From the NCBI GenBank assembly GCA_900314395.1, contig OMVB01000157.1, forward strand, positions 4,433-68,432: a stretch of 64,000 nucleotides of DNA. The letters run 5' to 3'. The position numbers and the translations under genes were made by a program. A model generated the notes under the pieces. It was not told where the DNA came from. It saw only the letters and a list, made by a program, of their open reading frames with translations, and made no database searches. The DNA comes from an uncultured Prevotellaceae bacterium (lineage in GTDB: Bacteria > Bacteroidota > Bacteroidia > Bacteroidales > UBA932). Of this stretch, positions 3,126-54,084 are shown piece by piece. Numbering within the stretch: position 1 is the stretch's first letter; the number at the start of each line of letters is the position of its first letter.

Positions 3126-3153
3126 AGATTTTTCGACTTCGCTCAAAATGACA
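3126..3153 (-). repeat. REP-like hairpin family A, copy 1 (intergenic)
   Basis: Minus strand TGTC-ATTTT-GAGCGAAGTCGA-AAAAT-CT. Confidence 0.85.
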
Positions 3154-3156
3154 AAA

Positions 3157-4407
3157 CTATTCTGTCCAAACAAGGTAGGCGGAAACCAGCCAGAAGTTCA
3201 TCTCGTTTTTCTCGTGGGACAGCGGCTGGGCTGTAGGAATGCTTATGGTAAGGCGGTGGGCGCCGGCGGCAAGGTCCTCAAGGGGAACCACTACCGGATT
3301 AACCTGCGACCCGGGACACCAGTTGGAGCGGGAGTAGTCAGAAGAGGCGATAATCTCGTCAATCTCTTTTTCCACCCTGCGGGGGCCGGACGGGGTCCAG
3401 GCTACGTAAGCGGCGGTACGCCTTTCCGTCCAGACGCCGGAAGTGGGGTTGAAGCGGCGGAAAGATGCGCAGTCCGTGCGCCATGGAGTGTAATCGATAA
3501 CGGCCTCTCCGTCCATCGAAACTATGTTTCTCTGCTTTGTGAACTCATCGCCCTCACTGTGGCCGCCGTGGCCTGTGGTAATGTAAGCAAGGCGTGCGGA
3601 AGAAGGCACCTGGGGCAGTTCAAAGTCTACGCTCAGGTCTTTGCGCGCAAAGATGTCAGGGTACTCCTGGCCAACGTAATAGACAGTGTTAACCAGAGGC
3701 ATTACATGGCGTTTGGGCAGGGGAGTGTACTCGTTTCCGGTCTCCTCTACATCGATATCAACGCTGGCAATATAGCCCTCCTTTGTCCAGGTGTCAATGA
3801 AAACGCCAACGTAGGCATCGTCCTGCAAAAGAGGGAAAAGATCGGTGATATCGGCCTCCCAGTAAGTCTCAGGGGCCCATCCGTCCACGTAGACAGGGCG
3901 CGTTTTGCTAACCTTGGCGGTGTCCAGGCGGCTGTAGAAACCAACGCCGAAGGGCGTCATGAAGCGGAGCAGCTCTGCTGCGGGGGCATATCCGTCGGCC
4001 GCGGCAACGCCAACCAGTTTTTCATATACCAGGGAGTCGACGGCAGGATAGGCGGCTTCTCCGGCGGCTACAGTCATCATGTTTACTGCCTGCGAGCCGG
4101 GGATAACGAATACGGAGCCGCTCTTGTCCCAGCGGTCACCGGCGGATTCTACGCGGACGGTGATGGTGGCTTTGACATCGCGCTCGTATGCGGGCAGTTC
4201 AATCTTTTTAAGTATGATGCGGCCGTTTCCCAGGCGGATGATTCCGTTTTCATCGGCAGCGTTAAAGGCCCCCAGCGAATCCGGAATCCAGCGCAAAGGC
4301 TCCTTCTGGAAAACGCTCAAGCGGGTGTCTCCCACGCTCTTGTAAGTCTTGGTGCAGGCCGATGCAAGGGTTGCGAGCGCACAGGCCAGGATGAGGAATT
4401 TTCTCAT
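3157..4407 (-). CDS. Peptide-N-glycosidase F family lipoprotein
   Basis: DRWDKSGS, ELLRFMTPFG, TTGHGG..GDEF and SRSNWCPG motifs typical of the PNGase F family; lipobox LASAC. Confidence 0.8.
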   Translation of the reverse strand: MRKFLILACALATLASACTKTYKSVGDTRLSVFQKEPLRWIPDSLGAFNAADENGIIRLGNGRIILKKIELPAYERDVKATITVRVESAGDRWDKSGSVFVIPGSQAVNMMTVAAGEAAYPAVDSLVYEKLVGVAAADGYAPAAELLRFMTPFGVGFYSRLDTAKVSKTRPVYVDGWAPETYWEADITDLFPLLQDDAYVGVFIDTWTKEGYIASVDIDVEETGNEYTPLPKRHVMPLVNTVYYVGQEYPDIFARKDLSVDFELPQVPSSARLAYITTGHGGHSEGDEFTKQRNIVSMDGEAVIDYTPWRTDCASFRRFNPTSGVWTERRTAAYVAWTPSGPRRVEKEIDEIIASSDYSRSNWCPGSQVNPVVVPLEDLAAGAHRLTISIPTAQPLSHEKNEMNFWLVSAYLVWTE

Positions 4408-4410
4408 ATT

Positions 4411-5772
4411 TTATTCGTTCATTGTTATAACTTGACCGGAGCCGCGGTACAGGCTTACCGGGCCGTCCGTTTCTATCGCGATAACTGTAATGGCGCTGTC
4501 CAGGGCATCGTCGGGGACCGTAATCTCCAGAAGGCCGGGTACTTCGGACCATGAAAGCTTGTTGAAAATCTTCCACTGCGGAGCGATGTCGCTGCCAACT
4601 ATGCGGACTTTTTTGATGTTGTCCACCAGTCCTTTTACTTCTACCGGGCCGATGGGTTTGTATGGCAGATAGATGTAGAGGACATCGCCGGCGGTGCTTA
4701 CGCTGGTGTATGCCTTTACGTGGTCTCCGGGGATGCCTGCGCGGGTGTTATATACGGCCTCTGAGTGTTTGGAGGTCCATCTTCCCAGTTCTTTAAGTAC
4801 GGCGACTTCTTCCTCCGGGATGCTTCCGTCTTCCCTGGGGCCGATGTCCAGTAGCAGGTTCCCTCCGTTGGAGATGCAGTCTACCAGTGTTTTGAGCACC
4901 ATCTGGGGGCTCTTGAAGTTGAGGTCCTTGTGCTGGAAGCCCCAGGAGTCGTTGATTGTGTAGCAGAGCTCCCAGTAGCGGTCTGCGGGACGCACTACGG
5001 GAACACCTATTTCTGGCGTGCCGTAATCTCCGTAACCCTGTATGCGTGAATTGATTATGCATGCTGGATTGTCGCTGCGGAGCTTGTCTGTGAGCTCTTT
5101 TGCCTTCCAGGTTTCCGCGCTCTGCTCCCAGTCGCCGTCAAACCACCAGAGATCCGGTTTGTACTGAGCCGTGAGCTCGTCCAGCTGTGCCGTGATGAAG
5201 TCCAGGAACTTCTGCCAGCGCTCCGGCTCCGCGGCTATGTCATACTTGGCGGGGCCGTTGCGGTAAATATTGGGATAATCCGGGTGGGACCAGTCAATCA
5301 GTGAATAATACAGTCCCAGCTTCACTCCTCCGCGGCGGCGGACAGCATCGACAAAAGGAGTAAGGACATCCCTGGCGGCGGGGGACATTTTCACAAGGCT
5401 TTTGTCATCGGCCTTGGTGTCCCAAAGGGCAACGCCGTCATGGTGCTTGGACGTGATGACGGTGTATTTGGCTCCGGAGCCGGCAATCAGGTCCGCCCAG
5501 GCTTCAGGGTCGTATGAAGACGCCGTAAACCTCTTGGCCTGGGCCATATAGTCTTCGTGGGAAATGTAACCGTTGTGGAAGGACCAGCTTTCGCTTACTC
5601 CGTCCACGGCGTAGATGCCCCAGTGGATGAAAATGCCCAGTTTGGCATTGTCGAACCATTGCATTTTTGCAGTGTCCACTGGCATGTTCTCTTGAACGGA
5701 ACCGGCCCCCTGTGAACAGGAGGTCAGTACCGGAATTATTGCCAGAAGGCAGTATGTCAGAAATTTTCTCAT
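4411..5772 (-). CDS. Alpha-L-fucosidase (GH29), lipoprotein
   Basis: WFDNAKLGIFIHWG, TSKHHDG, LWWFDGDW and NGGNLLLDIGP motifs; lipobox LTSC. Confidence 0.92.
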   Translation of the reverse strand: MRKFLTYCLLAIIPVLTSCSQGAGSVQENMPVDTAKMQWFDNAKLGIFIHWGIYAVDGVSESWSFHNGYISHEDYMAQAKRFTASSYDPEAWADLIAGSGAKYTVITSKHHDGVALWDTKADDKSLVKMSPAARDVLTPFVDAVRRRGGVKLGLYYSLIDWSHPDYPNIYRNGPAKYDIAAEPERWQKFLDFITAQLDELTAQYKPDLWWFDGDWEQSAETWKAKELTDKLRSDNPACIINSRIQGYGDYGTPEIGVPVVRPADRYWELCYTINDSWGFQHKDLNFKSPQMVLKTLVDCISNGGNLLLDIGPREDGSIPEEEVAVLKELGRWTSKHSEAVYNTRAGIPGDHVKAYTSVSTAGDVLYIYLPYKPIGPVEVKGLVDNIKKVRIVGSDIAPQWKIFNKLSWSEVPGLLEITVPDDALDSAITVIAIETDGPVSLYRGSGQVITMNE

Positions 5773-7049
5773 AGTCTTTCGATGGTGGCCTCGCGGTCAG
5801 GGCCAAGGGAGATTATGCTTATTCGTGTGCCCAGATAGCCTTCTATGAACTTAAGGTAGTCCATAAAGGATTTCGGCAGGTCTTCTTCCTTGCGGATATC
5901 GGCCAGGGATGTCTTCCAGCCGGGGAAATCTGTGTAAACAGGGGTGATCCTGCCGTCTGAGATGTCATAAGGGAAGCGGTCTGTCTGCCTGCCGTCCACC
6001 AGATAAGAGGTGCAGGCGCGGATGGTTTCAAAGCCGTCCAGGCAGTCCGACTTCATCATTATAAGGTCTGTGACTCCGCTAAGGGTTACTGCGTATTTGA
6101 GGGCTACAAGGTCTATCCAGCCGCAGCGGCGGGGACGTCCGGTTACTGCTCCGTATTCATGGCCGATGCGCCTTAGTTCCTCTCCTGTGGCATCGAACAG
6201 CTCGGTAGGGAAGGGGCCGCTTCCCACCCTGGTGCAGTATGCCTTGAAGATTCCGTATACTTTGCCGATGCGGCTGGGGGCTGCTCCCAATCCGGTGCAG
6301 ACGCCGCCGGCGGTGGTGTTGGAGGAGGTTACGAAGGGATATGAGCCGTAGTCTACGTCCAGCATCGACCCTTGTGCGCCTTCCGCCAGGATTGGCTGCT
6401 CTTTCAAAACATCATCGACAAAGAATTCGCAGTCTACGAATTTGTATTTTTTCATTCTGTCGATGGCGCCGAAGAACTTATCTTCTTCAAGGTCCTTTTC
6501 CTCATAGCTGAAGCCCAGATTCTTGAGTTGCTCTTTATGTTTTGCGGTGAGTTTCAGGTATTTGTCCTTGAAGTCCGGGAGTTCGATGTCTCCTACCCTC
6601 AGGCCGTTACGGCCTGTTTTGTCGCTGTAGCACGGGCCGATGCCTTTAAGTGTGGAGCCGATTTTGCCTTTGCCTGCGGCGGTTTCACGGGCTGCGTCCA
6701 GAAGGCGGTGTGTGGGAAGGATGAGATGGGCTTTGCGGCCTATCACAAGTTTCTTTTCCGGTTCTATGCCGGTGGCTTCCCTGATGCTGTCGCATTCTGA
6801 TATGAAGGCGATAGGGTCAAGGACTACTCCGTTGCCGACGATGTTGGTGGAGCCTTCCCTGAAGATGCCGGAGGGGATGCTCCTGACTACGAAGGATTTG
6901 CCGTCGAAGTGCAGGGAGTGGCCGGCATTGGGGCCGCCCTGGAAACGTGCTACCACGCCGTAGCGGCCGGCAAGTACGTCAACTATTTTTCCTTTGCCCT
7001 CGTCACCCCACTGGAGTCCGAGGACTACGTCTACTTTATGCATTGCCAA
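5769..7049 (-). CDS. purA: Adenylosuccinate synthetase
   Basis: GLQWGDEGKGK, GGPNAGH, EGAQG and TGRPRRCGW motifs. Confidence 0.98.
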   Translation of the reverse strand: MAMHKVDVVLGLQWGDEGKGKIVDVLAGRYGVVARFQGGPNAGHSLHFDGKSFVVRSIPSGIFREGSTNIVGNGVVLDPIAFISECDSIREATGIEPEKKLVIGRKAHLILPTHRLLDAARETAAGKGKIGSTLKGIGPCYSDKTGRNGLRVGDIELPDFKDKYLKLTAKHKEQLKNLGFSYEEKDLEEDKFFGAIDRMKKYKFVDCEFFVDDVLKEQPILAEGAQGSMLDVDYGSYPFVTSSNTTAGGVCTGLGAAPSRIGKVYGIFKAYCTRVGSGPFPTELFDATGEELRRIGHEYGAVTGRPRRCGWIDLVALKYAVTLSGVTDLIMMKSDCLDGFETIRACTSYLVDGRQTDRFPYDISDGRITPVYTDFPGWKTSLADIRKEEDLPKSFMDYLKFIEGYLGTRISIISLGPDREATIERL

Positions 7050-7055
7050 AACTGT

Positions 7056-7493
7056 TTAGAACGGAAGATCATCGCCCTCCTGTGCAAGGGGTGCTGCAGG
7101 GGCTGCGCCTTGTGCCGTGAAGCCTGCGGGAGCGTCTTCACGGTCGTTCCTTCTTGTGAGGAGTTGGAGATTGTCTGCGACGATTTCTGTGATATAGCGT
7201 TTCTGGCCGGCCTGGTCTGTCCAGGAGCGGGAGCGGAGGTGACCCTCTATGTAGAGCTGGCTGCCTTTCTTGACGAAGCGCTCCACTGTGTCTGCTAGAC
7301 CTCTCCAGGCTACGATGTTGTGCCATTCCGTGTTTTCCTGAAGATTGCCGGAGCGGTCGCGGTAGCGCTCTGTTGTTGCCAGAGTGAAGGTTGCTACTTT
7401 GGCGTTTGTGCCGTTTGCTGTGTTTCCATCAAGGTAACGTACTGTAGGATCCTGGCCCACGTTACCGATAAGCATTGCTTTGTTTAGTGACAT
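7056..7493 (-). CDS. ssb: Single-stranded DNA-binding protein
   Basis: LNKAMLIGNVG, TEWHNIV and C-terminal DDLPF. Confidence 0.97.
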   Translation of the reverse strand: MSLNKAMLIGNVGQDPTVRYLDGNTANGTNAKVATFTLATTERYRDRSGNLQENTEWHNIVAWRGLADTVERFVKKGSQLYIEGHLRSRSWTDQAGQKRYITEIVADNLQLLTRRNDREDAPAGFTAQGAAPAAPLAQEGDDLPF

Positions 7494-7518
7494 ATCTATA
7501 GTAGTATTTAAGTTGTTT

Positions 7519-7559
7519 CAAAGATAAGTAAAAGACTTGACAATATAAAAATATTGTCA
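7519..7559 (-). promoter_or_regulatory. ssb promoter (-7 TATCTTTG) with adjacent palindrome
   Basis: CAAAGATA at 7519-7526; TGACAATAT-AAAA-ATATTGTCA at 7538-7559. Confidence 0.55.
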
Positions 7560-7608
7560 GTAATTTTTCCGAACTTTTTACATACCTCTTGCCGGCTGAC
7601 TTAAGTTT

Positions 7609-8514
7609 CTATTTTGCGATGTTGGTGAGGAGGGGGAAACCGGCGAGGGCCTGGAGGCGGAGCCAGTCCTGGCCGGAGACATGGATGGCGCCGGCGCGGA
7701 GCGCGCTCAGAAGCAGTCCATCCTTGAATGCAGGATTCTTGTAGTTAGCCTCCACGACTATTTTCGGGTGGTGCGATCCGATTTTCCCAAAGTCCCCGAC
7801 TTCCAGCTCATTTAAGCCTTCTGCCGCGGCCGACGCCGCGTAAATAATTACGTCACAGCTCCTTACGGCCGCTTTTAGATCTTGAAGGCCGCAAACGGCA
7901 AAGCCGTATTCAGGAGCACTCATGGCAAAATCTGCGGCCTTTGACTGGGTGCGGTTGCAAAGGATTACATCGTAACCCAGCTCTGCTGCGGCAACCGCGG
8001 CCGCACGGCCGGCTCCGCCGCAGCCGGCGACCAGCGCCTGGCCACCGCCGGGATACAGGACACTGAACTGCTGCTTGAAAAACTGGTGGACCCGCTTTAC
8101 AAAGTCCGCCCCGAACTCCCCGTGGAATTCGCTCACAATTTCCGGGAAACAAGCCTCTGCAAGGCCGAGAATCACTGCAGAAAAATCCGTATTGTCCCCG
8201 TATATAATCCCGCTGGAACCTGGCCCGGAACCGGGCTGTTTGACGGCCAGGTTAATGGCTCCGGCCTTGAACGCCGGGCCGGAGAGGGCTCCCAGGCCGT
8301 CGGCGGTAAGCGCGGCTACCTGCGCAAATGCTTTCTCCTTGAAAGGCGCAGTTATATTCACTCCGTCGTAGTCACTGAGGAATCGTTTCCAAAGTACCTG
8401 GAAATCAGAGCCTTCTATAAGGTCGTAAGGCCACTTTCCGCCGTAGGCGGCACGGAACAGTTCCGGGCTGCCGGAATGGGCGATGTCGCTGCCTATGAGT
8501 CCGAATCTTTTCAT
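7609..8514 (-). CDS. aroE: Shikimate dehydrogenase
   Basis: FGLIG..IAHSGSP, GVNITAPFKE, GAIN, DNTD, GCGGAGRA and NRTQSKA motifs. Confidence 0.85.
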   Translation of the reverse strand: MKRFGLIGSDIAHSGSPELFRAAYGGKWPYDLIEGSDFQVLWKRFLSDYDGVNITAPFKEKAFAQVAALTADGLGALSGPAFKAGAINLAVKQPGSGPGSSGIIYGDNTDFSAVILGLAEACFPEIVSEFHGEFGADFVKRVHQFFKQQFSVLYPGGGQALVAGCGGAGRAAAVAAAELGYDVILCNRTQSKAADFAMSAPEYGFAVCGLQDLKAAVRSCDVIIYAASAAAEGLNELEVGDFGKIGSHHPKIVVEANYKNPAFKDGLLLSALRAGAIHVSGQDWLRLQALAGFPLLTNIAK

Positions 8515-9344
8515 GGATTCTTCGCTTTGCTCAGAATGACAGGGGACTGTCTTTGGCGGACGGCTTCGAAGAGGAGGATGGCGGCGGAGACGGAAACGTT
8601 CAAGGAATCCAGACGGCCCAGCATCGGTATGCGTATATGCTCATCGGCGGCAAGACGCCAGGCGTCGGACAGCCCCGTTGCCTCCGTTCCCATCACGATG
8701 GCAACCCCGCGGCGCATATCGGAATCGTAGTAAAGAACTGAGTCCTGGAGCTGCGCTGTAAGGATGCGTATCCCATTGTCTTTCAGGTATTTGATTGCAT
8801 CGGCCGATGTCGCAGTGACAACTGGTACGGAAAAAATTGCGCCGATGGATGCCCGAATAAGATTGGGGTTGAAGAGGTCTGTCAGAGGGTCGCAGACGAT
8901 GACGGCATCGGCCCCGGCGGCATCGGCGCTGCGAAGCACCGCGCCAAGATTCCCCGGCTTCTCTACGGATTCCAGAACCATTACCAGCGGGTTCCCCGGA
9001 AGAGAGATGCTGCCAAGGCTTCGCCCGGGCGTAACCATTTCTGCTATAATGCCTTCCGTTCCTTCACGGTATGCGATTTTGCCGTATACGACAGGGGAGA
9101 CTTCAAAGAGATTCTTCGCTTCGCTCAGAACCTTGCAAAGCAAGGGGGTTTCTTCGGTCAGTTCAAGGATCTCCGGGCAAACAAACAGCGTATCTATCCG
9201 GAAACCAGCCTCAAGTGCATGCTCCAGTTCCCGCCGGCCCTCCAGGACAAACAGCCCCTTCTCCCGCCGCAGTTTAGATTTTTCCTGCAACGCCAGAAGC
9301 TCCTTTATCTTCGGATTCTGCGCAGAAGTAATTCTCTCTGCCAT
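8511..9344 (-). CDS. TrmH/SpoU family RNA methyltransferase
   Basis: ITSAQNPKIK, KPGNLGAVLRSADAAG, MGTEATGL and SLNVSVSAAILL motifs. Confidence 0.93.
   Translation of the reverse strand: MAERITSAQNPKIKELLALQEKSKLRREKGLFVLEGRRELEHALEAGFRIDTLFVCPEILELTEETPLLCKVLSEAKNLFEVSPVVYGKIAYREGTEGIIAEMVTPGRSLGSISLPGNPLVMVLESVEKPGNLGAVLRSADAAGADAVIVCDPLTDLFNPNLIRASIGAIFSVPVVTATSADAIKYLKDNGIRILTAQLQDSVLYYDSDMRRGVAIVMGTEATGLSDAWRLAADEHIRIPMLGRLDSLNVSVSAAILLFEAVRQRQSPVILSKAKNP
8515..8546 (-). repeat. REP-like family A, copy 2 (in-frame, C-terminus of TrmH)
   Basis: TCCCCTGTC-ATTCT-GAGCAAAGCGA-AGAAT-CC encodes SPVILSKAKNP. Confidence 0.85.
9108..9131 (-). repeat. REP-like family A, copy 3 (partial, in-frame inside TrmH)
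   Basis: GTTCTGAGCGAAGCGAAGAATCTC encodes VLSEAKNL. Confidence 0.75.
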
Positions 9345-9349
9345 ACGTG

Positions 9350-10867: not shown

Positions 10868-10894
10868 TTTCCTTTTTTATTATTTATCGAGTGG

Positions 10895-13247: not shown

Positions 13248-15992
13248 TTAAATATTGAAGAGGTTAGGCTCTTCCTCGTCACCGAATGAGAGGTCGTCTA
13301 TGCCAAGGTCAATGACGTCGCCTGCTACTGCGTCCCGCTTTTTGGGAGATTCTTCGCTTTCGCTCAGAATGACAGGGGAGTCGCTCTGGGTGACAGGGGA
13401 GTCTTCTGGAACCGGCAGGGGCTCTCCGAAGGCGACGGCCTTGAGGTCGAACGGCGAGCACTTCTTGCCCTTGGCCGTGAAGCCCTTCTTGCCGATAAAC
13501 TCCTCTGCATCAATTGTTTCCGGCTGCCTGTGTGCGAACTTGCCACCGAAGGTAAGCTCTATAACCGGACGCTCGTCGGAAGAAACAGCAACCAGGTAAC
13601 TGCCCTTGGCATCGGCAATAAAACCAAGAGGAGTGTTGTCGCTTACAGGGAAACTGAACCTCTTCACATAGAAGGCCTTGGCCGCACCGTCCCAGTAAAG
13701 GGCCGTATAGGTCTTGGAAGTATCCAGCTTTTCTATCTGGAGCACATCGCCCTGATAGCGGTTGCTAAGGTCGAACGAAGTGGTATAGAAGGTTCCGTTC
13801 TTGAAAACCGCCAGGATCTTGTCCTCTGCGCCAAACTGTCCAAGGTGGATTCCGCGGCCGTCCTCATTCAGCCTCTGGACATCGGCATCGTACCAGATAT
13901 CCTTGCCGCTGATAGTGGAAACACCCTTGTTCTTGAGGGTTATCCTCTGGATGGCGTTCTTTGTCACAAGATTGCCCCTTGAACCGCGTGCCTTGATTGC
14001 CAGGGCAGAGAAATCGTATTCGATAGAACTCTTCTTGAGCATCGGCTTGGGCCTGAAGGTGACTCGCACGCTCTCTGCCTCTCCGTTGTGGTTGGCCGTC
14101 ATCCACATAATCTGGCTGCCCGGCTTGCCCTGGGTGATATCGTACTCCTTGTCGCGGGTTATAGAGGTGATATTGAAGCGCTTAGCGTAATATATGGAGG
14201 ACTTTCCGTCGCGGTAGATTACGTTGTAGATTGTACGGTCGTCGCCTCGGTTGAAGACATTCGCATAAATCAGGTCCTTTGCGATGAACGCCTTGTCCGT
14301 AACCTTTGTCACCCTGTATGTTCCATCCTTGCCGATGGTGATGATTTCACTCAGGTCAGAGCAGTCGCAGATATACTCTCCGCCATCGTCTTTCTTAAGG
14401 CCGATGCCGACGAAGCCCTCTGCCAGGTTGGCATAAAGCTTGGCGTTGTTGTTGACAACCTTGGTGGCTGCGATGGTCTCGAAGTTGGTGATTTCCGTCT
14501 GGCGGGGGAAGAGGTCCCCGTATTTTTTCTTAAGGGACTTGAACCAGTCGATGGTGTACCTGGTAAGATGCTCCAGCTTGTCCCTGAGGTCTGCAATCTG
14601 CTCCTCTATGCCGCGGATTCTCTCTTCCACGGCCTTGACGTCGAACTTGGAAATCTTGCGCACCGGCTTCTCCACAAGCTTAAGGATATCGTCCATTATA
14701 ATCTCGCGGTTAACCTGGCCCTGGAACTGCTTCATGGCCTCGAATACCTCCTGAAGCTGAATCTCCCAAGTCTTCTGGTCCTGCTCCAGGACTTTGTAAA
14801 TGCGGTTCTCGAAGAAGATTCTTTCAAGGGAGTTGTAATGCCAGTCGTCCTCCAGCTCGTTCAGGCGAATCTGAAGCTGGCGGCCAAGGAGCTCCTTGGT
14901 GTGGTTGGTGCTGTATTCCAGCACGTCGTTTACGCTCAGGAACTGCGGCTTGTTGTCTACGATAACGCAGGCGTTGGGCGCGATTGTAGTCTCGCAGTCC
15001 GTGAAGGCGTAAAGTGCATCAATCGTCTTGTCCGGGGATACATCGTTGGGAAGGTGAATCACAATCTCTACCTTCTCCGTAGTCATATCCTCTATTTTCT
15101 TAATCTTGATTTTGCCCTTGTCCTTTGCCTTCAGGATGGTGTCTATCACCTGCTGGGTGGTCTTTCCGTAAGGAATCTCCGTTATGGCGATGGTATTCTT
15201 GTCAATCTTCTCAATGCGCGCGCGTACCTTTACAATACCGCCGCGCTTGCCGGCCATGTATTTGGAGCACTCCGCGAAGCCGCCGGTAGGGAAGTCCGGG
15301 AAAATCTGGTAGGGCTCTCCCTTAAGGATGGCGATGGATGCATCCAGAAGTTCGTTGAAGTTATGCGGGAGAATCTTGGAAGCCATACCCACGGCAATGC
15401 CCTCAGTTCCTTGCGCCAGAAGCAGCGGGAAACGTACCGGGAGCTCCGTAGGCTCCTGGTTGCGGCCGTCATAGGACGTCATCCAGTTGGTAATCTTAGG
15501 GTCGAATACAACTTCCTTTGCGAACTTGCTCAGGCGGGCCTCTATGTATCGGGGGGCCGCATTGCTGTCACCGGTGAGGATGTTACCCCAGTTACCCTGG
15601 CAGTCTACGGTAAAGCCCTTCTGGCCCAGCTGGACCAGGGCTCCAAGGATGGATGCATCACCGTGAGGGTGATACTGCATGGCCTGTCCTACGATGTTCG
15701 CAACCTTTGTAAAGCGGCCGTCGTCCATCTTGTACATGGCGTGGAGCACACGCCTCTGTACGGGCTTCAGTCCGTCCACGATGTGCGGGACGGCCCTGGC
15801 CAGGATTACATAGGATGAATAGTCAAGGAACCAGTCCTTGAACATTCCGGAAAGCTTGAACTTTGTGCTGTCTTCACCCAGCAGGCGGTCGTATCGTCCG
15901 CTGGGAGTGGCCGAATCGTCCAAAGGCTCGCCGGCTTCATCGTCATCGAATTGACTGTCAACGTTTTTGATATCGTCCCAATCTTCGCTCAT
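13248..15992 (-). CDS. parC: DNA topoisomerase IV subunit A (GyrA/ParC family, Bacteroidetes type)
   Basis: DGLKPVQRR, YHPHGDASI and APRYIEARL catalytic Tyr; ParC rather than GyrA is inferred. Confidence 0.85.
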   Translation of the reverse strand: MSEDWDDIKNVDSQFDDDEAGEPLDDSATPSGRYDRLLGEDSTKFKLSGMFKDWFLDYSSYVILARAVPHIVDGLKPVQRRVLHAMYKMDDGRFTKVANIVGQAMQYHPHGDASILGALVQLGQKGFTVDCQGNWGNILTGDSNAAPRYIEARLSKFAKEVVFDPKITNWMTSYDGRNQEPTELPVRFPLLLAQGTEGIAVGMASKILPHNFNELLDASIAILKGEPYQIFPDFPTGGFAECSKYMAGKRGGIVKVRARIEKIDKNTIAITEIPYGKTTQQVIDTILKAKDKGKIKIKKIEDMTTEKVEIVIHLPNDVSPDKTIDALYAFTDCETTIAPNACVIVDNKPQFLSVNDVLEYSTNHTKELLGRQLQIRLNELEDDWHYNSLERIFFENRIYKVLEQDQKTWEIQLQEVFEAMKQFQGQVNREIIMDDILKLVEKPVRKISKFDVKAVEERIRGIEEQIADLRDKLEHLTRYTIDWFKSLKKKYGDLFPRQTEITNFETIAATKVVNNNAKLYANLAEGFVGIGLKKDDGGEYICDCSDLSEIITIGKDGTYRVTKVTDKAFIAKDLIYANVFNRGDDRTIYNVIYRDGKSSIYYAKRFNITSITRDKEYDITQGKPGSQIMWMTANHNGEAESVRVTFRPKPMLKKSSIEYDFSALAIKARGSRGNLVTKNAIQRITLKNKGVSTISGKDIWYDADVQRLNEDGRGIHLGQFGAEDKILAVFKNGTFYTTSFDLSNRYQGDVLQIEKLDTSKTYTALYWDGAAKAFYVKRFSFPVSDNTPLGFIADAKGSYLVAVSSDERPVIELTFGGKFAHRQPETIDAEEFIGKKGFTAKGKKCSPFDLKAVAFGEPLPVPEDSPVTQSDSPVILSESEESPKKRDAVAGDVIDLGIDDLSFGDEEEPNLFNI
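13346..13403 (-). repeat. REP-like family A, copy 4 plus a partial tandem copy (in-frame in the ParC tail)
   Basis: Encodes DSPVTQSDSPVILSESEESP; ATTCT/AGAAT stem. Confidence 0.85.
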
Positions 15993-21795: not shown

Positions 21796-22587
21796 TTAAT
21801 AATCTACTTTGGAAAGGAAGAGGGCGTTGCCGGGGACGGATTCGCCGGCGGCGCAGCGGTCCCCGCTGGCCAGGACTTCCTCTATGTGGGATACCGGATA
21901 GCGGCCGCGGCCGATGTCCAGCAGGGTGCCTACGACGGCCCGGACCATGTTCCGGAGGAAGCGGTCTGCGGAGATGGTGAAGACCAGGTACCGGGACCCT
22001 TCGGCTTCGCTCAGGGTGACAGGGGATGCCGGATAACCCATCAGGGCGACGTGGGTGGGGGTGTATGGTTTCCAGGAGGCCTCGAAGACTGTGCAGACGG
22101 AGGTCTTGTTGTTGCCGCCAGTCTTTTCAAAGCAGCTGAAGTCATGTGTTCCCAGCAAAAATTCGCAAGCCTTGTTCATGGCATCTACGTCCAGCGGATA
22201 GGTGTAAAGGTAGGAGTAGGAAGTCATGAAAGGGTCCTTCTTTCTGTGTATGAAATAGTTATACCGGCGGAGCCGGGCATCGAAGCGTGCGTGGAAGCCG
22301 TCGGCCGCAACTTTCACTTCGTGAATAGTTACGGAAGAAGGCAAAATGGCATTTAATTTGCAGGCAATTTCTTCTTCGCGGAAGGGCTGTGAAACATCGA
22401 AGTGAGCCACATAGCCGATGGCATTCACCCCGGCGTCAGTCCTGCCCGCACCGGTAACGGAAACAGTCTCCCGGAGGGCGAGTGAAAGAGCCCTTTCCAG
22501 GACCTCCTGGACGGACTGGGCGTTGGGCTGGATTTGCCAGCCGCTGAACCCTGAACCGTCGTAAGACAACGTGACTGAATAGCGCAT
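21796..22587 (-). CDS. truA: tRNA pseudouridine(38-40) synthase
   Basis: YDGSGFSGWQ, GAGRTDAGV, THDFSCF and FLRNMVR motifs. Confidence 0.96.
   Translation of the reverse strand: MRYSVTLSYDGSGFSGWQIQPNAQSVQEVLERALSLALRETVSVTGAGRTDAGVNAIGYVAHFDVSQPFREEEIACKLNAILPSSVTIHEVKVAADGFHARFDARLRRYNYFIHRKKDPFMTSYSYLYTYPLDVDAMNKACEFLLGTHDFSCFEKTGGNNKTSVCTVFEASWKPYTPTHVALMGYPASPVTLSEAEGSRYLVFTISADRFLRNMVRAVVGTLLDIGRGRYPVSHIEEVLASGDRCAAGESVPGNALFLSKVDY
21993..22026 (-). repeat. REP-like family A, copy 5 (in-frame in TruA)
   Basis: TCCCCTGTC-ACCCT-GAGCGAAGCCGA-AGGGT-CCC encodes SPVTLSEAEGS. Confidence 0.85.
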
Positions 22588-27435: not shown

Positions 27436-28154
27436 GAGGTAAGATATTGATAATCTGCTGTTTGATGCTTTCTGCGCTGACTGCTGCCGCCCAGGTGGAC
27501 CGTAGCGAGGTGCGCTCCGGGAACCGTCGCTTCAAGAAGGGCGACTTCCGGGCTGCGGCGGTTGAATACATGAGGGCGCTGGACAAGGATTCCACTTCTT
27601 TTGCCGGCAACTACAATCTTGCCAGCGTGCACTATCGGCTTGGCTCTTATGATTCTGCCGCAGAATCGCTTGGCAAGCTGAAGGAAGTTGCCGGGGAAAG
27701 CCGGTACGGGGCCGATTATTACTATAATCTTGGCGACGTGGCTATCGCCAAAAAGGACTGGCAGGGGGCTGTGGACGCCTTCAAACAGTGTTTGATACTG
27801 GACCCGGGCAGCATAGAGGCCAAGGAGAATTATATCTACGCCAAGAAGCACCTGGAAAACAACAACGGCGGCGGCCAGAATGACCAGAACCAGAACAAGG
27901 ACCAGAACAAGGACCAGAACCAGGACCAGGATCAGAATCAGGACCATAACAAAGATCAGGACAAAGACCAGAACAAGGATAACAAGGACCAGCAGGGACA
28001 GCAGCCCCAGCCGCAACCTCAGCCGGTGAAGGTATCGCCCCAGCAGGCCCAGCAGATGCTCCAGGCAATACAGGCCAAGGAAAAGAACACCCAGGAGAAG
28101 GTAGAAAAGGCCAAGGCAGCCGTCGGAGTCAGGAAGAATGAAAAGAATTGGTAG
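27432..28154 (+). CDS. batC: BatC, TPR protein with N/Q/D/K low-complexity linker
   Basis: TPR motifs YNLASVHY and YYNLGDV; QNKDQ repeats at about 27880-28010. Confidence 0.88.
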   Translation: MRGKILIICCLMLSALTAAAQVDRSEVRSGNRRFKKGDFRAAAVEYMRALDKDSTSFAGNYNLASVHYRLGSYDSAAESLGKLKEVAGESRYGADYYYNLGDVAIAKKDWQGAVDAFKQCLILDPGSIEAKENYIYAKKHLENNNGGGQNDQNQNKDQNKDQNQDQDQNQDHNKDQDKDQNKDNKDQQGQQPQPQPQPVKVSPQQAQQMLQAIQAKEKNTQEKVEKAKAAVGVRKNEKNW

Positions 28155-44808: not shown

Positions 44809-44812
44809 ATCT

Positions 44813-47291: not shown

Positions 47292-47336
47292 TTGTCCTCA
47301 AAAATAAGTATTTTTGAAGTGAAATCAAAATGTAAG

Positions 47337-48851: not shown

Positions 48852-48858
48852 ACCGGAT

Positions 48859-51800
48859 ATGAAACGGACAACCGCAATCATTGCCGGAGCCGCCCTTGCA
48901 GTGGCAGCCCTGGCCGGACTTAATCTATTCGCTAAAACCATGACCAGCCAGCAATCAAAAGATAAAGAAGGCCATGTCCTTACCGCTCTTTGGAAGGAAT
49001 ACAAGGCCGCGGAAAACGCAGACCGTCCGCTGTTGCAGACGGAAATCCTTGAACGCATAAAAACGCAGGCCAAGGAGCGCCAGCTGCCCTGGGATTTCTG
49101 GGACGCCGCCACAAGCTCCGTCCAGGTTCAAGGCAGCCGCAATTGGAAGCTTCGGGATTCCCTGAACAAGGCCCTGAAAGAAGAGTCCATGGCTTTCCCG
49201 GACCCTGTTGTGGGCTTCACCTATTTATATCACTACAAGTCTTTGTCAGAGATGCTCAAGTTTGCCCGGGAGAACATAGGCAAACTTAAGGGAAACCGCA
49301 ATGAGGCCTTCTACAAGAACGATTCGCGCGTTGGGCAGCAACTGAGCAAAAAGCTTCCGGATTATATTAAAAATGACTACGAGTACGCTCTGTGGAATAT
49401 CGCCTTAGGTTCCAGTTACAATGAGCGGAATGCTGCAACGGATTCACTCCGGAGCATCCTTGACGGCCGTTATCCTGCAGCTCCCTACTTGGAATACAAG
49501 GTGGCGGAGCGCCTGACCAGCGGCTCCGGCGCCTGGAAGAAGGGAATGCAGAAGGTGGTGGACAATTACCCCGGAAAGGCTATCACCCTGTATCCGCTTG
49601 CGGCTGTAACCTACCAGCGCCTGTGGGATTTGCAAAGGGACAAAAAATCTGTCCAGCAGGATTACAAGGCTATCCGCGTGGATATCGCCGCTTTTGAGAC
49701 CCAGCGCAAGAATTATACCGGCTCCGAGGCCGCCCTGGTGGCGGAGCTTAAGTCGTTCAAACACATGCTGGAGGAGCTGGATTCAAAGAACCTGACGCTG
49801 GAGGTGACGCCGGAAAAGGCAACAGTCGGCTTCCGCAACATAAAGTCCGGCTGGCTCACGATGGTAAACGAAGACAAACCGGACAAAGTGCTCTTCCGCC
49901 AGCAGCTCAAAAACACATCGGGCCGATACTATATATATGATACTCTGGTAGTTACGCTTCCGGACCTGGGGGACGGAGTATATAAAGTCAGCATCGGCAG
50001 CAATGAATTGAAGGAAGAGGAAATCGTTACCGGAAAGTTCCAAAGGTATTCGTATGCATTGTCGGTTCGCAGGAGCGCGGACGGCTTTGGCTTTTTTGCT
50101 ACCAATGCTGCAACGGGAATGCCCCTGGAGAAGGTGGAACTGGTTGCAAAGGACGACGATGACAAAGAGCGCAGTGTTACAGTCAGGCAGGGGAGCGCCG
50201 CTTATACCCCGGTGCCCAAGATAAAGGGGATTGAGGATTTGGAGGACTGTGAAGAATTCTTCGTTCGCTGGAAGGATGCTTCCGGCTTTGTGAGGATGAG
50301 CCCTTCTACGGACCTTATGATCCTTGACCTGGACAGGGGATATGACAGCTATAACGGGCGCATTTACCTTAATGTTGCGGCCTTCCATCCCGGAGAGGTT
50401 GTTAAGTTTAAAGGCTTGATTTTCAAGACTTTGGCCGATAGCTCCCTGTCTCTTGGCAAACCCGGTTCTGCGGCTGAGGTTACTATTAGCGACCCGTCCG
50501 GGAAAGAGTATTTCAAAGAGAAGTTCGATGTCTCTGAAATGGGTTCGCTGGCCGGTGAATTCACCCTGCCGCAGGAGGCCAAGACCGGTTATTGGGAGAT
50601 AGACATACGTTATGCGGGAAGGCATGTGGCAAGCAGGATCTTCTATTACGGGGACTTTGTGCCGCCAAGTTTTACCTGCACTTTTGAGCCTTTTGAGAAT
50701 GCGTATTTCCCCGGTGATACCGTGCATGTTCGCGGCCGGCTGGAGAGTTTTTCCGGTCATAAGCTGTCAGAGGCCAGGGTGGAATATATTGTAAAAAAGT
50801 ATAATAGGGTTGTCGCTACCGATGTCATAAAGCCGGAGGCTGACGGCAGCTTTGATTTTGCTTTTGTTTCTGAGCGTGAATATTATGACATCCTTTTGAC
50901 GGTGGCCGATGCCACCGGTGAGACTCTTGACTTTGAGACTTACCTACATGTGTATGATTATATGCGGATCGATGGCTCGCTTAAGAACGGTGCCGGCGAT
51001 TACAAGGCTTCTTTGCCTGTTGTTACGGACTCCAAGGCAAGGTTTATGGTTGGCGTTACCAATGAGTCCCTGCCTGTTGCGGGAGCGCGGTTCAAATATG
51101 AGTTGCACGGCCCTTACGATGCGGTAGTGCTTGAGGGTGAGAAACTTGCGGGGTCAGAATTTGAGTTGGATTTGGCCGGCCTGCCGGATGGCTGCTATAA
51201 GCTGGAGTTCCAGAGTTTGCTTAAGAACCCTAACGGGAGGGCTCCTGAAGACGATGTCTCCTTTATTAAATATACTCCGGGTGCCGTTATTCCGGGCGAT
51301 GTAAAAGAGTTGTTCTGGCACGGGCCCGGGAAGGTTGCGGAAGGGGAGGATATCGAGTTCTGTCTAGGCAGCGGTACGCATCCTGTCTGGGCGGCAGTAG
51401 AGCTTTATTCTCCTACGCGAAAGGTGCTTTGGGCAAAGACTGTGTTCATCGCCAAGGGCAGCTTTGACAAGGTTGCTGTTCCTTATAATAAGGACTTTGC
51501 GGACGATGTTTGCGTTGGCCTTGTGTTCTTCAATGATTATGAGGGCTTTGGGTACGATGCCCATTATTATTTTGTGCGTGCGGATTCTTCGCTGCCGCTT
51601 GTTGTGAAGTCGTTCCAGGATGAGGCACGGCCGGGCACGGAGGTGACTGTGGAGCTGGAGACGCGTCCGGGTGCAGAGGCTGTGGCTTCTGTATGGGACA
51701 AGGCGTCGGATGCTATTTACAGGAACCGGTGGGATAAGGTTTATGTGAGGGAGGTCCTGGCTGATTTTGCGCCGCATCTTAATGCGGTAAAGCGCCCCGG

Positions 51801-54084
51801 CAGGGAGTATGATTTCATTGCTTACGGCCGGATGGATGCAGGTGATATGCTCGAGGCTGCGGCTCCGGCTCCTGTAATGGAAAAGTCGTCAGATTCGCTG
51901 GAGGAGGTTGTTCTTATGCGGAATAGTGTGTCGGAGGGGGTACGGAGCGATTTTTCCGGTGCCCTGGCTTTTGAGCCCTTCCTTAAGGCCGATGCTGACG
52001 GAATTCTGCGCTTTAGTTTTATGACGTCGGATAAGCTTTCTACTTTCAGGATGGCGGTGTTCGCCCATGACAGCAAGGTACGTAACAATTTGGTAGAGAA
52101 GGAGTTCAAGGTTACTGTTCCTGTTAAGGTGGATGTCCTTAAGCCGGAGTATCTGGTGGAGGGGGACAGTTTTACGCTTACTGCTACTGTTTCTTCCAAT
52201 GTTGATAAGGAGATGCGGGGTAAGTTGGTTGTTTACCGGTACGATGGTGATGATTACAAAGCTTTGAAGCCTGTGGCTGTGCTTTCTGCGGATGTTTCCG
52301 TGCCGGCCTCCGGCGTTGCAACCCACCAGTTTGACCTTTCCCCTGTCATGTTGAGCGAAGTCGAAACATCTCCTTCCCTGCAGCCGGTAGGCCTGCTGGT
52401 AAGCTTCCAGGCCGACGACGGAACGTCAGACGCCATGTTCTTCGCGGTTCCCGTTCTGGAACGTGCTCAGACGCTTACGGAGGCACATTCTGCCGTGCTT
52501 CTTGCGGGGGCGGACAAGGATGCGCTCATGAAGGACCTGGAGGGGCGTTTCACGGGTACCAGCCATTATGGCGCGGTTGCCAGCGAGATTACGGTTCTGG
52601 ATATGGTCAAGGAGGTTCTGGAGAGCAAGCTGGAGGAGCCGGGCAATGATGTCCTCTCCCTCACCGAAGCACTCTACGTCCGCTCCGTCCTTAATTCTTT
52701 AGTCGGCAGGGGCAAGCCCCTTTCCCCTGTCACTGCTTCGGCATCGTCAGGCTCTTCCCCTGTCATGTTGAGCGAAGCCGAAACATCTCTCCTTCAGAGG
52801 ATCCTGGCCCTGCAGAACGCCGACGGAGGCTTCGCGTGGTTCAAGGGTTTCGGCTCGTCGCCGATGCTTACGGCCGTAGTGCTGGAGAGGTTCTGCAAAA
52901 TGACCGCAGCTGTCACCCTGAGCGAAGTCGAAGGGTCTCTCTCCAAAGCAGTCAAGTACCTGGACAGCAACCACTTCGCTGCGGATGTTCCTTACTGGAG
53001 AGGCGGGATTTCTGACGCTCAGTACATGTATATCCGTGCGCTTTACGCAGATGTAGCCTTTGATGTTCCTAAGGAAAAGACGGCTGCAAAGAAGTTTGCG
53101 GACTTTAAGAAGGATGCCGAGGAGTATCTGGTTCCGGAGAAGGTGCGCGGGCTCAATGCCAACATTATGGGCAAGGCTCGCAGGCTCAATACGCTCCGGG
53201 TGCTGCTTTCTTCCGATGCCGGCAAGGGGCTGGCTGCCCTGTGGGGCATAAAGACATCGGCAAAGATGGAGAGTTCGATGGCGGCGGATGTGACGTCGCT
53301 GCTGGAGTATGCGGTGCGCCACAAGGATGGGGGCTGGTATTATCCGAATGCCGTTATGCCTTGGCGCGGCCTTCTTGAGACTGAGGCCTACGCCCACGTC
53401 CAGCTGGCCAACCTGCTTTCCCCTGTCAACCTGCTTTCCACTGTCATGTTGAGCGCAGACGAAACATCTCCTTCCCCGGCGGCGGTGGCAGACGGCATTC
53501 GTCTGTGGCTGATGCTCCAGAAGGAGACCCAGCACTGGGACTTGACGCCTCACTTTGTGGATGCGGTGGCCTGTATCCTTGAGGGCAGTAGGGAAGTGCT
53601 TGATACTAAGGTGCTTACACTTGCCAAGACATATCGCAAGCCTTTGGAGGAGATTGTTGCCGCAGGGAATGGCTTTACTATTAAGCGGGAGTTCTTCCGT
53701 GAGGTTGTCAAGACGGGTGGCAAGACGGATGTGGAGCCAATTTGGCCTGGAGATTCCGTGCAGAAGGGCGACAAGATTATCGCTGTTTACTACGTGTATA
53801 ACGCAGAGAACCGCAGCTTTGTACGCCTGCGGGCGCCTCGCGAGGCCACGCTGCGGCCGGTGGACCAGCTTTCCGGTTACAATTGGCGTTATTACAAGGA
53901 GGTGCGTACTTCCTGGACGGATTACTACTTTGATTCCATGCCGGAGGAGCGCTCAGAGATTCACGAGGAGTTCTTTGTAACCCAGACTGGTACCTTTGCC
54001 TGCGGGGTTCCGGTAATTGAGTCGCTGTACGCCAACCATTACCGCGCCAACGACGCCTTCCGCGGCCCTCTCCATGCCAAGTAG
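48859..54084 (+). CDS. Bacterial alpha-2-macroglobulin-like protein (MG domains)
   Basis: Signal peptide; MG2-like FHPGEVVKFKGL...GSLAGEFTLP; A2M-like FMTSDKLSTFRMAVFAH; LQNADGGFAWF in the TED-like region; 1741 aa. Confidence 0.85.
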   Translation: MKRTTAIIAGAALAVAALAGLNLFAKTMTSQQSKDKEGHVLTALWKEYKAAENADRPLLQTEILERIKTQAKERQLPWDFWDAATSSVQVQGSRNWKLRDSLNKALKEESMAFPDPVVGFTYLYHYKSLSEMLKFARENIGKLKGNRNEAFYKNDSRVGQQLSKKLPDYIKNDYEYALWNIALGSSYNERNAATDSLRSILDGRYPAAPYLEYKVAERLTSGSGAWKKGMQKVVDNYPGKAITLYPLAAVTYQRLWDLQRDKKSVQQDYKAIRVDIAAFETQRKNYTGSEAALVAELKSFKHMLEELDSKNLTLEVTPEKATVGFRNIKSGWLTMVNEDKPDKVLFRQQLKNTSGRYYIYDTLVVTLPDLGDGVYKVSIGSNELKEEEIVTGKFQRYSYALSVRRSADGFGFFATNAATGMPLEKVELVAKDDDDKERSVTVRQGSAAYTPVPKIKGIEDLEDCEEFFVRWKDASGFVRMSPSTDLMILDLDRGYDSYNGRIYLNVAAFHPGEVVKFKGLIFKTLADSSLSLGKPGSAAEVTISDPSGKEYFKEKFDVSEMGSLAGEFTLPQEAKTGYWEIDIRYAGRHVASRIFYYGDFVPPSFTCTFEPFENAYFPGDTVHVRGRLESFSGHKLSEARVEYIVKKYNRVVATDVIKPEADGSFDFAFVSEREYYDILLTVADATGETLDFETYLHVYDYMRIDGSLKNGAGDYKASLPVVTDSKARFMVGVTNESLPVAGARFKYELHGPYDAVVLEGEKLAGSEFELDLAGLPDGCYKLEFQSLLKNPNGRAPEDDVSFIKYTPGAVIPGDVKELFWHGPGKVAEGEDIEFCLGSGTHPVWAAVELYSPTRKVLWAKTVFIAKGSFDKVAVPYNKDFADDVCVGLVFFNDYEGFGYDAHYYFVRADSSLPLVVKSFQDEARPGTEVTVELETRPGAEAVASVWDKASDAIYRNRWDKVYVREVLADFAPHLNAVKRPGREYDFIAYGRMDAGDMLEAAAPAPVMEKSSDSLEEVVLMRNSVSEGVRSDFSGALAFEPFLKADADGILRFSFMTSDKLSTFRMAVFAHDSKVRNNLVEKEFKVTVPVKVDVLKPEYLVEGDSFTLTATVSSNVDKEMRGKLVVYRYDGDDYKALKPVAVLSADVSVPASGVATHQFDLSPVMLSEVETSPSLQPVGLLVSFQADDGTSDAMFFAVPVLERAQTLTEAHSAVLLAGADKDALMKDLEGRFTGTSHYGAVASEITVLDMVKEVLESKLEEPGNDVLSLTEALYVRSVLNSLVGRGKPLSPVTASASSGSSPVMLSEAETSLLQRILALQNADGGFAWFKGFGSSPMLTAVVLERFCKMTAAVTLSEVEGSLSKAVKYLDSNHFAADVPYWRGGISDAQYMYIRALYADVAFDVPKEKTAAKKFADFKKDAEEYLVPEKVRGLNANIMGKARRLNTLRVLLSSDAGKGLAALWGIKTSAKMESSMAADVTSLLEYAVRHKDGGWYYPNAVMPWRGLLETEAYAHVQLANLLSPVNLLSTVMLSADETSPSPAAVADGIRLWLMLQKETQHWDLTPHFVDAVACILEGSREVLDTKVLTLAKTYRKPLEEIVAAGNGFTIKREFFREVVKTGGKTDVEPIWPGDSVQKGDKIIAVYYVYNAENRSFVRLRAPREATLRPVDQLSGYNWRYYKEVRTSWTDYYFDSMPEERSEIHEEFFVTQTGTFACGVPVIESLYANHYRANDAFRGPLHAK
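52339..52372 (+). repeat. REP-like family A, copy 6 (in-frame in A2M)
   Basis: TCCCCTGTC-ATGTT-GAGCGAAGTCGA-AACAT-CTC encodes SPVMLSEVETS. Confidence 0.88.
52756..52789 (+). repeat. REP-like family A, copy 7 (in-frame in A2M; partial TCCCCTGTCAC at 52723)
   Basis: Encodes SPVMLSEAETS; ATGTT/AACAT stem. Confidence 0.88.
52910..52939 (+). repeat. REP-like family A, copy 8 (in-frame in A2M)
   Basis: CTGTC-ACCCT-GAGCGAAGTCGA-AGGGT-CTC encodes VTLSEVEGS. Confidence 0.88.
53419..53470 (+). repeat. REP-like family A, copy 9 with a local tandem duplication (in-frame in A2M)
   Basis: Encodes SPVNLLSTVMLSADETS; ATGTT/AACAT stem. Confidence 0.82.

Follow-up and report, generated by a model that had tools for sequence, protein, structure and literature searches.

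A TGTC-tagged hairpin family in genes and spacers of an uncultured Prevotellaceae bacterium, a probable selfish member of the CGTC-tagged REP superfamily

Copies in the window and their host genes

The window analysed here is a stretch of 64,000 nucleotides from an uncultured Prevotellaceae bacterium (assembly GCA_900314395.1, contig OMVB01000157.1, positions 4,433-68,432), which carries ten copies of a short hairpin resembling repetitive extragenic palindromic (REP) sequences and termed family A. The copies were identified with an nhmmer profile built from the genome-wide copies and with a covariance model, and nine of them lie within 3126-53470, where nine had been proposed in the original prediction, made from the sequence alone; the tenth lies at 598. 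Window copies follow the pattern TGTCA-stem-GAGCGAAG(Y)CGA-stem-TCTC, and the four stem variants that had been read as compensatory (ATTCT/AGAAT, ATGTT/AACAT, ACCCT/AGGGT and ATTTT/AAAAT) are all found with perfect complementarity. The single loop pattern proposed with them is exact in only five window copies, the others having the related loops GAGCAAAGCGA, GAGCGAAGCGA, GAGCGAAAGCGA, GAGCGCAGACGA or GACCGTAGCGGA. The core GAGCGAAGYCGA, allowing at most one mismatch, matches the window six times against 0.72 expected, a number reached by 0 of 100 shuffles; a core match at 27635 is stemless and was rejected as a copy. Rfam covariance models gave no match at gathering thresholds across the window and none at E <=5 over 52300-53500. 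The copies, and the gene hosting four of them, are as follows.

598-630, plus strand: tenth copy, TGTCATTCC-GACCGTAGCGGA-GGAATCTC, at the 5' edge of a minus-strand gene, with a covarying C3:G10 loop pair
3126-3155, minus strand: intergenic copy, stem ATTTT, in a 37-nt spacer, 1 nt past the stop of a PNGase F-like gene (3157-4407)
8516-8545, minus strand: C-terminal copy of the SpoU/TrmH-like gene, stem ATTCT, loop GAGCAAAGCGA, giving the 10-aa extension PVILSKAKNP
9106-9130, minus strand: internal copy of the SpoU/TrmH-like gene, 5'-truncated and without TGTCA, its peptide VLSEAKNL falling in a variable loop of the substrate-binding domain
13345-13378, minus strand: copy in a ParC-like gene, stem ATTCT, loop GAGCGAAAGCGA, with one 21-nt left-half copy upstream (13345-13399 in all)
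21995-22024, minus strand: copy in TruA, stem ACCCT, net +24 nt encoding SPVTLSEA (residues 188-195)
48859-54084, plus strand: bacterial alpha-2-macroglobulin (A2M) gene by Pfam, host of the following four copies
52340-52374, plus strand: A2M copy 1, stem ATGTT, peptide SPVMLSEVETSPS, a gap in 7 orthologues
52758-52790, plus strand: A2M copy 2, stem ATGTT, peptide SPVMLSEAETS, where orthologues have a gap or variable loop
52908-52941, plus strand: A2M copy 3, stem ACCCT, peptide AVTLSEVEGS, replacing a variable loop with little net change in length
53438-53473, plus strand: A2M copy 4, stem ATGTT, loop GAGCGCAGACGA, peptide TVMLSADETSPS, where most orthologues have a gap

Pfam domains of the host genes (SpoU_methylase, DNA_topoisoIV, PseudoU_synth_1 and MG2/A2M/bMG10) agree with the predicted placement of eight intragenic copies, two in the SpoU/TrmH-like gene, one in a ParC-like gene (GyrA/ParC-type subunit A), one in TruA and four in the alpha-2-macroglobulin gene. 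The copy at 8516-8545 is a C-terminal extension and not an internal insert. All eight (8/8) stand in sense orientation and in the frame where GTC is a Val codon (V-x-L-S-E; hereafter S0), also as predicted. The intergenic copy at 3126-3155 precedes a thioredoxin-like gene (start 3119) and is in sense orientation relative to both neighbours. At 8511-8545, the CCATGA tail of the element gives the SpoU/TrmH-like gene its TGA stop and forms an ATGA junction with the ATG of the downstream gene (7609-8514). The ParC-like copy and its half copy encode DSPVTQS-DSPVILSESEES in an acidic, length-variable C-terminal tail, and a predicted tryptic junction peptide of TruA ends in ...MGYPASPVTLSEAEGSR. Fragments consisting of the flank and TGTCA lie 36 nt upstream of A2M copy 2 and 18 nt upstream of A2M copy 4. 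Three of the five ATGTT-stem copies of the source genome sit in the A2M gene, and the insertions there are therefore not independent events.

Anatomy of the hairpin

The family A unit, represented by TGTCATTTCGAGCGAAGTCGAGAAATCTC, is about 30-45 nt long. A CyTTyCC-like, pyrimidine-rich left flank is followed by the TGTC tag, a 5-bp stem starting with A-T, the loop, the 3' arm and a CTC tail; the tail is mostly CTC or CTA, and CCA in the 8516 copy. Conserved CyTTyCC-type flanks are found on both sides of coding and non-coding copies. The alignment of copies shows no variation at G3 and T4 and conservation of 90% or more at T2 and C5, with the pair A6:T27 in 51/51 and T7:A26 in 46/51. Of the stem cells in 51 distinct sequences, 98.3% are paired, and 63 are double changes against 13.5 in shuffles. 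The loop has GA...GA ends, whose sequence would allow tandem sheared G.A pairing, then an inner pair in which position 3 covaries with position n-2 (G:C, C:G or A:T), and a GAA-type tip; the 11-nt loop reads GA-GCGAAGC-GA and includes the GCGAAGC mini-hairpin motif. With five Watson-Crick pairs, the tandem G.A and two inner pairs, the stem has nine stacked positions and the apical loop is GAA to GAAGT, long-loop variants also occurring. The arms are perfectly matched in 113/125 hits of an unconstrained pattern scan of public genomes. The hairpin is backed by covariation, not by predicted stability.

Two ideas concerning the stems were rejected. The absence of wobble pairs as a test of DNA against RNA structure is circular, since the seeds were picked with perfect stems, and mismatches in the unconstrained hits show no G.T preference. 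Templating of the stems by the target, an idea arising from the overlap of the TruA 3' arm with an ancestral E-G codon pair, does not fit stems that group into a small number of subfamilies across the genome and have conserved flanks.

Inserts compared with orthologues

As judged from the alignments, every insert examined is a lineage-specific addition located in a variable loop or tail, and the orthologues of TruA, TrmH, ParC and A2M that have no such peptides bear out the proposal that a hairpin repeat adds lineage-specific segments to proteins. The TruA peptide SPVTLSEA is missing from 11/11 orthologues of the genus and from most of about 20 closer homologues, being present at 87% protein identity or above, degenerate in P0004 (~83%) and P0007 (~80%), and absent from P0005 and P0006 (~81-82%) and from the aligned more distant homologues. 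On the structure model, the peptide belongs to a coil that separates helix 178-182 from strand 200-207 and has a predicted local distance difference test score (pLDDT) <50, in line with the surface-loop location that had been expected. The same surface loop carries unrelated 30-residue inserts in the homologues P0008, P0009 and P0012 (alignment columns 215-280), and thus accepts several kinds of insertion.

The inserts of the SpoU/TrmH-like, ParC-like and A2M proteins are absent from all orthologues compared, the four A2M copies corresponding to gaps or variable loops in six to seven of them, while the relatives L017 and L019 have their own independent S0 copies in or near the same A2M loops.

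Location, frame and orientation across the genome

The source genome is a fragmented metagenome-assembled genome (MAG; 2.30 Mb, 187 contigs, 50.7% GC) that contains about 90-110 copies overall, a structure-aware regular expression giving 91 full copies and the covariance model ~106; covariance-model counts are those among the best scored candidates, at most 150 per genome. Many copies are found at contig ends, and family A therefore breaks MAG assembly. A crude whole-genome gene caller of our own (1907 genes, 89.6% coding density) places 41 of the 91 copies within genes, 6 at gene edges and 44 between genes, so that the family is depleted from coding DNA (41/91 vs 89.6%; p ~1e-25). Between roughly a third and 45% of the copies are intragenic; they use all open frames and either orientation, and the insert-bearing genes, ~25-40 in number, include those of topoisomerase IV, RecR, MetRS, TruA, TruB, SOD and RlmN.

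The strict rule of one frame and one orientation, which had been read from the window, fails genome-wide. Besides S0, the sense frames are CHSE (the CHSERSEES frame) and SF (the SFR frame), and both open antisense frames are used in real genes of the source genome. Among the 41 intragenic copies from the crude calls, 22 are in S0 (p = 8e-5) and sense outnumbers antisense 30:11. A stricter test, in which the open reading frame (ORF) had to extend 30 codons or more to either side of the copy and both flanks had to score positive codon log-odds, retains 28 copies, 13 in S0 (p = 0.011), 5 in CHSE, 1 in SF and 9 antisense, and gives p = 0.07 for S0 once the A2M copies are collapsed. Copies in frames other than S0 occur in clearly real genes (RecR, TruB, HutU, SOD, CitG-like, XerD-like recombinase and AddB-like nuclease); SOD holds two frames, a 613-aa CitG/citrate-lyase-ligase-like ORF holds three on both strands, and TruB is also mixed. 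In three other copy-rich congeners, 106 sampled copies include 20 intragenic ones, 4 in S0, 5 in CHSE, 0 in SF and 11 antisense (sense:antisense 9:11), while a cross-phylum sample has 4 in S0, 4 in CHSE, 3 in SF and 6 antisense. S0 is the modal frame in the source genome, yet it is neither exclusive nor general. By codon log-odds, S0 is the top sense frame for all four stem variants and CHSE is poor, which offers a simple selective account of the preference for S0 over CHSE. Intergenic copies of the source genome stand 26:12 sense to antisense relative to the upstream gene.

Distribution among genomes

The number of copies varies sharply within the genus, being 0 in 8/18 congeners, 2-44 in six and 104-136 in four, the source genome included; this patchiness fits a selfish, bursting element. 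Genomes of 12 other Bacteroidales families have 0-11 copies, and five genomes of other phyla have 63-136 each. The TGTC form is found in Verrucomicrobia, Acidobacteria, Dehalococcoidia, Bacteroidota, Clostridia, Gemmatimonadota, Planctomycetes, Nitrospirae and others, and a CGTC-tagged 5' half with the core in Bradyrhizobium, Novosphingobium, Helicobacter, candidate-phyla bacteria and one archaeal MAG. One copy of the source genome, on contig C88, is itself CGTC-tagged. In total, the hairpin ranges over more than 15 phylum-level groups, and its apex is conserved across phyla.

On a complete Dehalococcoidia chromosome (G032), no clear two-replichore pattern of orientation is seen, as judged by eye. 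This chromosome carries ~10 copies spaced ~120 nt at 1737672-1741244(+) and three spaced 233 nt at 1809083-1809578(-), which are tandem arrays of a longer hairpin-containing unit, possibly in a repetitive gene.

Half-copy arrays and the RecR linker

One to three tandem left-half copies, each consisting of the flank, TGTCA, the 5' arm and part of the loop, lie upstream of 30/91 full copies and downstream of only 1 (p = 3e-8). The end of every half copy (63/63) falls somewhere from the 5' arm to the apex of the loop, and the length of loop retained scales with loop size (rho 0.53). Intragenic arrays have periods of 21, 24, 27 or 36 nt, while 19, 20, 22, 23 and 26 nt also occur between genes; the restriction to multiples of three within genes marks a proliferating element on which selection has acted as a filter. 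The arrays could arise by apex-centred slippage, by loop cleavage and repair, or from a transposition intermediate.

The RecR gene lies outside the window at contig C30:48516-49184, and the linker of its Toprim region is a hotspot, for which loci L375-L378 were compared. Its alleles (82-99% nucleotide identity) comprise an empty one of 204 aa, one of 222 aa with an antisense and a truncated sense copy (source genome), and longer ones of 234 and 241 aa, which have the same pair and 1-2 extra 21-nt half copies; one allele has a different TGTC-tagged 8-bp palindrome (TGTCATGCCCGACCCCGATCGGGCATCTC) at the same site. Alleles at 99.0% nucleotide identity differ by a 36-nt array indel with its breakpoint after the loop GAGC, while those at 82-87% are empty or have a longer array or the different palindrome. 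Such strain differences imply that the arrays turn over on a strain timescale and alter the length of the protein linker. The RecR copy is conserved no better than its own flanks.

In-frame arrays of 21-nt half copies are also present in genes for an alpha-amylase (C138:42900-43020), an N-acylglucosamine 2-epimerase-like protein (C90:40780-40865) and MetRS (C56), where they encode the Ser-rich SSSVISS or SSSVISD (2-3 units) followed by VISSEVEKS. Arrays of family A repeatedly adjoin a long palindrome, GGAAAATCTATTTGTACC ... GGTACAAATAGATTATTCC, at C103:16480-16860(-), C13:18640-18760, C73:150-300(-) and C170:60-200(-), which is probably the family B of the original prediction. They often begin right after a TAnnTTTG-like Bacteroidetes promoter motif, an arrangement that suggests a composite repeat unit.

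Search for a mobilising enzyme

A cognate REP-associated tyrosine transposase (RAYT) gene flanked by family A, which the original prediction had proposed to look for, was found neither in the source genome nor at 239 cross-phylum loci. The source genome has three weak matches to PF01797, and a protein search gave five paralogues of ~300 aa with HUH motifs, which score 40-44 bits on the NCBIfam model REP_Tyr_transpos, below its cut-off of 80. These five divergent RAYT/TIRYT-like Y1 HUH proteins have a C-terminal helix-turn-helix-like tail, and their genes are located as follows.

C83:3379-4311, minus strand: RAYT-like gene with ATGTCCC(N7)GGGACAT hairpins on both sides
C58:4813-5664, plus strand: RAYT-like gene with ~120-nt direct repeats around it
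C141:1-805, minus strand: RAYT-like gene
C93:8444-9295, plus strand: RAYT-like gene
C158:21007-21852, plus strand: RAYT-like gene

The flanks of the genes on C83, C58 and C141 carry repeats unrelated to family A, and the RAYT-like genes were accordingly rejected as its cognate partners. A tblastn search of the RAYT-like proteins against 1.74 Mb of flanks of the 239 cross-phylum loci gave one weak match and no enrichment. The RAYT-like family occurs in most of 18 congeners and in 0/12 other Bacteroidales families, being confined to the genus among the 31 genomes searched. Across 19 congeners, its gene count correlates with the element count (rho 0.63, p = 0.004, without correction for phylogeny), a correlation that is only suggestive because three element-free congeners carry 4-5 RAYT-like genes.

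Interpretation of family A

Family A is quite probably a member of the CGTC/TGTC-tagged REP superfamily, a selfish element that is filtered by selection and translated when intragenic. As a non-autonomous palindromic repeat, it would proliferate as selfish DNA in some species of the genus and not in others, its copies landing everywhere and, in a 90%-coding genome, only the harmless ones persisting. Those that persist would be intergenic copies, often just 3' of genes, and open-frame intragenic copies in surface loops, linkers and tails, which would be translated as 8-12 extra residues. The single frame of the window copies probably has three causes: stops close one sense frame (in stems ending in T) and one antisense frame; V-I-L-S-E is the most codon-like and hydrophilic sense reading; and the copies are not independent, four being in one gene and three of one rare subfamily, with chance contributing as well. 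Mobility would proceed through a single-stranded hairpin intermediate, driven by a trans-acting enzyme or a host process.

The features of the family, its lineage-specific insertion, its patchy copy number, its use of several frames and its loop location in TruA are direct observations, and most evidence favours a selfish element, with the conservation in TruA as the one contrary hint. Several points weigh against this reading. The 28-nt TruA element differs at one position between orthologues that are 79-84% identical overall (p ~0.01-0.05), which hints at constraint or homogenisation rather than pure junk. The excess of sense copies (30:11 within genes and 26:12 between them) is not accounted for by codon fit alone, and the tally rests on our own crude gene calls, in which the open, codon-like S0 frame could raise the S0 counts near gene ends. 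Filled-versus-empty comparisons of TruA and RecR, whose backgrounds are 79-83% identical, showed no target-site duplication, and no mobilising enzyme was found among the RAYT-like genes of the source genome or in the flanks of the 239 cross-phylum loci. Nearest-neighbour DNA folding gives only -1 to -3 kcal/mol (z ~0) with an energy model that has no terms for sheared G.A pairs or the mini-hairpin. Translation of the inserts would follow from the open frames as they are read in the DNA.

The TruA copy, with 1/28 differences against 16-21% divergence of its coding flanks, could also speak for hairpins that benefit the host, as stabilisers or terminators of mRNA 3' ends or in DNA replication or repair, the intragenic copies being kept by selection on nucleic-acid structure. 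The sense excess relative to transcription, inside and downstream of genes of the source genome, and the apex shared across phyla would fit as well, yet the 8/18 copy-free congeners, the orthologous genes without copies, the antisense copies in real genes and the lack of orientation bias in congeners (9:11) do not. In P0004 and P0007 the extra TruA residues persist although the copy itself has decayed, and the RecR copy shows no conservation beyond its flanks, so that a benefit to the host appears improbable. About equally doubtful is a mechanistic origin of the bias, in which insertion would be targeted, through a codon-phased pyrimidine-rich target or coupling to transcription or replication, to the sense strand and Val frame. 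The S0 enrichment of the source genome (22/41 and 13/28), the CyTTyCC-type flanks on both sides of coding and non-coding copies and the independent S0 copies of L017 and L019 in the same A2M loops agree with it, whereas two or three frames on both strands of one gene (SOD, CitG-like, TruB), the S0 counts of only 4/20 in congeners and 4 beside 4 CHSE, 3 SF and 6 antisense across phyla, the loss of strict significance when A2M is collapsed (p = 0.07) and the lack of an obvious replichore-linked strand pattern on the Dehalococcoidia chromosome, again by eye, stand against it. The idea that (S)PV-x-LSE-x-E is a functional protein motif or domain, with the palindrome incidental, draws on the recurrence of the peptide in unrelated proteins. 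It is refuted by the intergenic copies, about half of the total, and by the same DNA read in four other frames elsewhere; orthologues do without the peptide, the conserved unit is a DNA hairpin with covarying arms, and next to no weight is given to this idea.

Spread without a transposase, in which template switching at the apex during replication or repair would produce the half arrays, the correction of quasipalindromes and new copies, is unlikely but deserves some weight. The left-half arrays (30/91 upstream vs 1 downstream), the 63 half copies that end no further than the apex with loop length scaling as rho 0.53, the 36-nt RecR indel after GAGC between strains of 99% nucleotide identity, the perfect arms of 113/125 unconstrained cross-phylum hits, and the lack of an associated transposase both here and in the published account of CGTC-tagged REPs (PMC3733652) speak for it. 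Slippage, however, accounts for local arrays and not for dispersal to new loci, lineage-specific conserved flanks imply copying from master sequences, and the RAYT-like count correlation (rho 0.63, p = 0.004) leaves room for mobilisation in trans. In a bolder form, which is likewise given only a small chance, a near pan-bacterial hairpin, its conserved apex a GCGAAGC-like mini-hairpin, would spread and homogenise without a dedicated transposase, through apex-centred template switching or loop cleavage in host replication or repair, with the polar half arrays as its footprint and, in copy-rich lineages, as hypervariable in-frame modules by which essential proteins such as RecR gain linker length, even between strains of 99% identity.

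Comparison with known systems

Miniature inverted-repeat transposable elements (MITEs), which measure 70-300 bp, carry terminal inverted repeats of 15-30 bp and duplicate their target site, were rejected for family A, which is ~30-45 nt long with no duplication evident at TruA and RecR. A literature search with the DNA string and all frame peptides gave nothing relevant. The GTAG REPs and REPINs, associated with RAYT (Y1 HUH), are alike in being short tagged hairpins with compensatory stem variation located mainly past gene 3' ends, but their tag is GTAG and their RAYT gene is flanked by the cognate repeat, while family A has the tag TGTC and the RAYT-like genes on C83, C58 and C141 are flanked by unrelated repeats. 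The mini-hairpin DNA d(GCGAAGC)/d(GCGAAAGC) (review PMC13037366) resembles the 11-nt loop, which holds GCGAAGC, and one window copy has GCGAAAGC; the 12-nt loop variants (GCGAAGTC), however, are not the exact motif, and standard folding predicts weak hairpins here.

The CGTC-type REP likeness put forward in the original prediction fits the description published by Di Nocera, De Gregorio and Rocco (2013, BMC Genomics 14:522; PMC3733652), and family A was matched to it at the level of the description. In that account, a terminal CGTC tag, often TGTC and with CCTC also allowed, lies directly 5' of a palindrome with an A-T stem start, a stem of 8-9 positions, few loop types with loops of 4-5 nt and a short tail of consensus CCA, the elements forming mainly head-to-head dimers; long-loop variants are reported for Bradyrhizobium (PMC3733652). 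The survey describes these repeats from five phyla, including Bacteroidetes and Chlorobi, without an associated transposase and with intragenic copies, among others in tRNA pseudouridine synthases, and it counts Rickettsia RPE-4 (CGTC-4) and RPE-6 (CGTC-1) and Neisseria dRS3 as members (PMC3733652). Set against this description, family A has the tag, the complementary stem of 9 positions starting with A-T, the intragenic copies and, at the loci searched, no flanking transposase; its few loop types and short unpaired tail may correspond as well. It differs in its tail (mostly CTC/CTA here, CCA there), in a much higher intragenic fraction (~30-45%), in a hairpin range that goes well beyond the five phyla surveyed in 2013, and in frequent tandem left-half arrays, which do not appear to be described in PMC3733652. 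Copies here are mostly single or accompanied by half-copy arrays rather than dimeric, head-to-head pairs being found at C117, C118, RecR and in several congeners.

Rickettsia palindromic elements (RPE), reportedly the work of Ogata et al., are alike in their in-frame insertion into genes of functional proteins, their surface peptide segments, their selfish appearance and the lack of a transposase, and family A is likewise found in frame in ORFs of conserved proteins whose orthologues do not have it. They differ in their host, an obligate intracellular alphaproteobacterium as against free-living gut or rumen Bacteroidales, and in length, RPE-1 having 100-150 nt and family A ~30-45 nt. The link between the two is the classing of RPE-4 and RPE-6 as CGTC repeats in the published account (PMC3733652). 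The decoration of proteins by palindromic repeats in the manner of RPE is thus not limited to obligate intracellular bacteria, and such inserts affect annotation through spurious ORF extension, MAG assembly through breaks at contig ends, and alignments of protein families. The comparison also bears on the old question of how CGTC-type REPs move without a transposase, for which the patchy copy number of the genus, the polar half arrays and the strain polymorphism of RecR provide tractable material.

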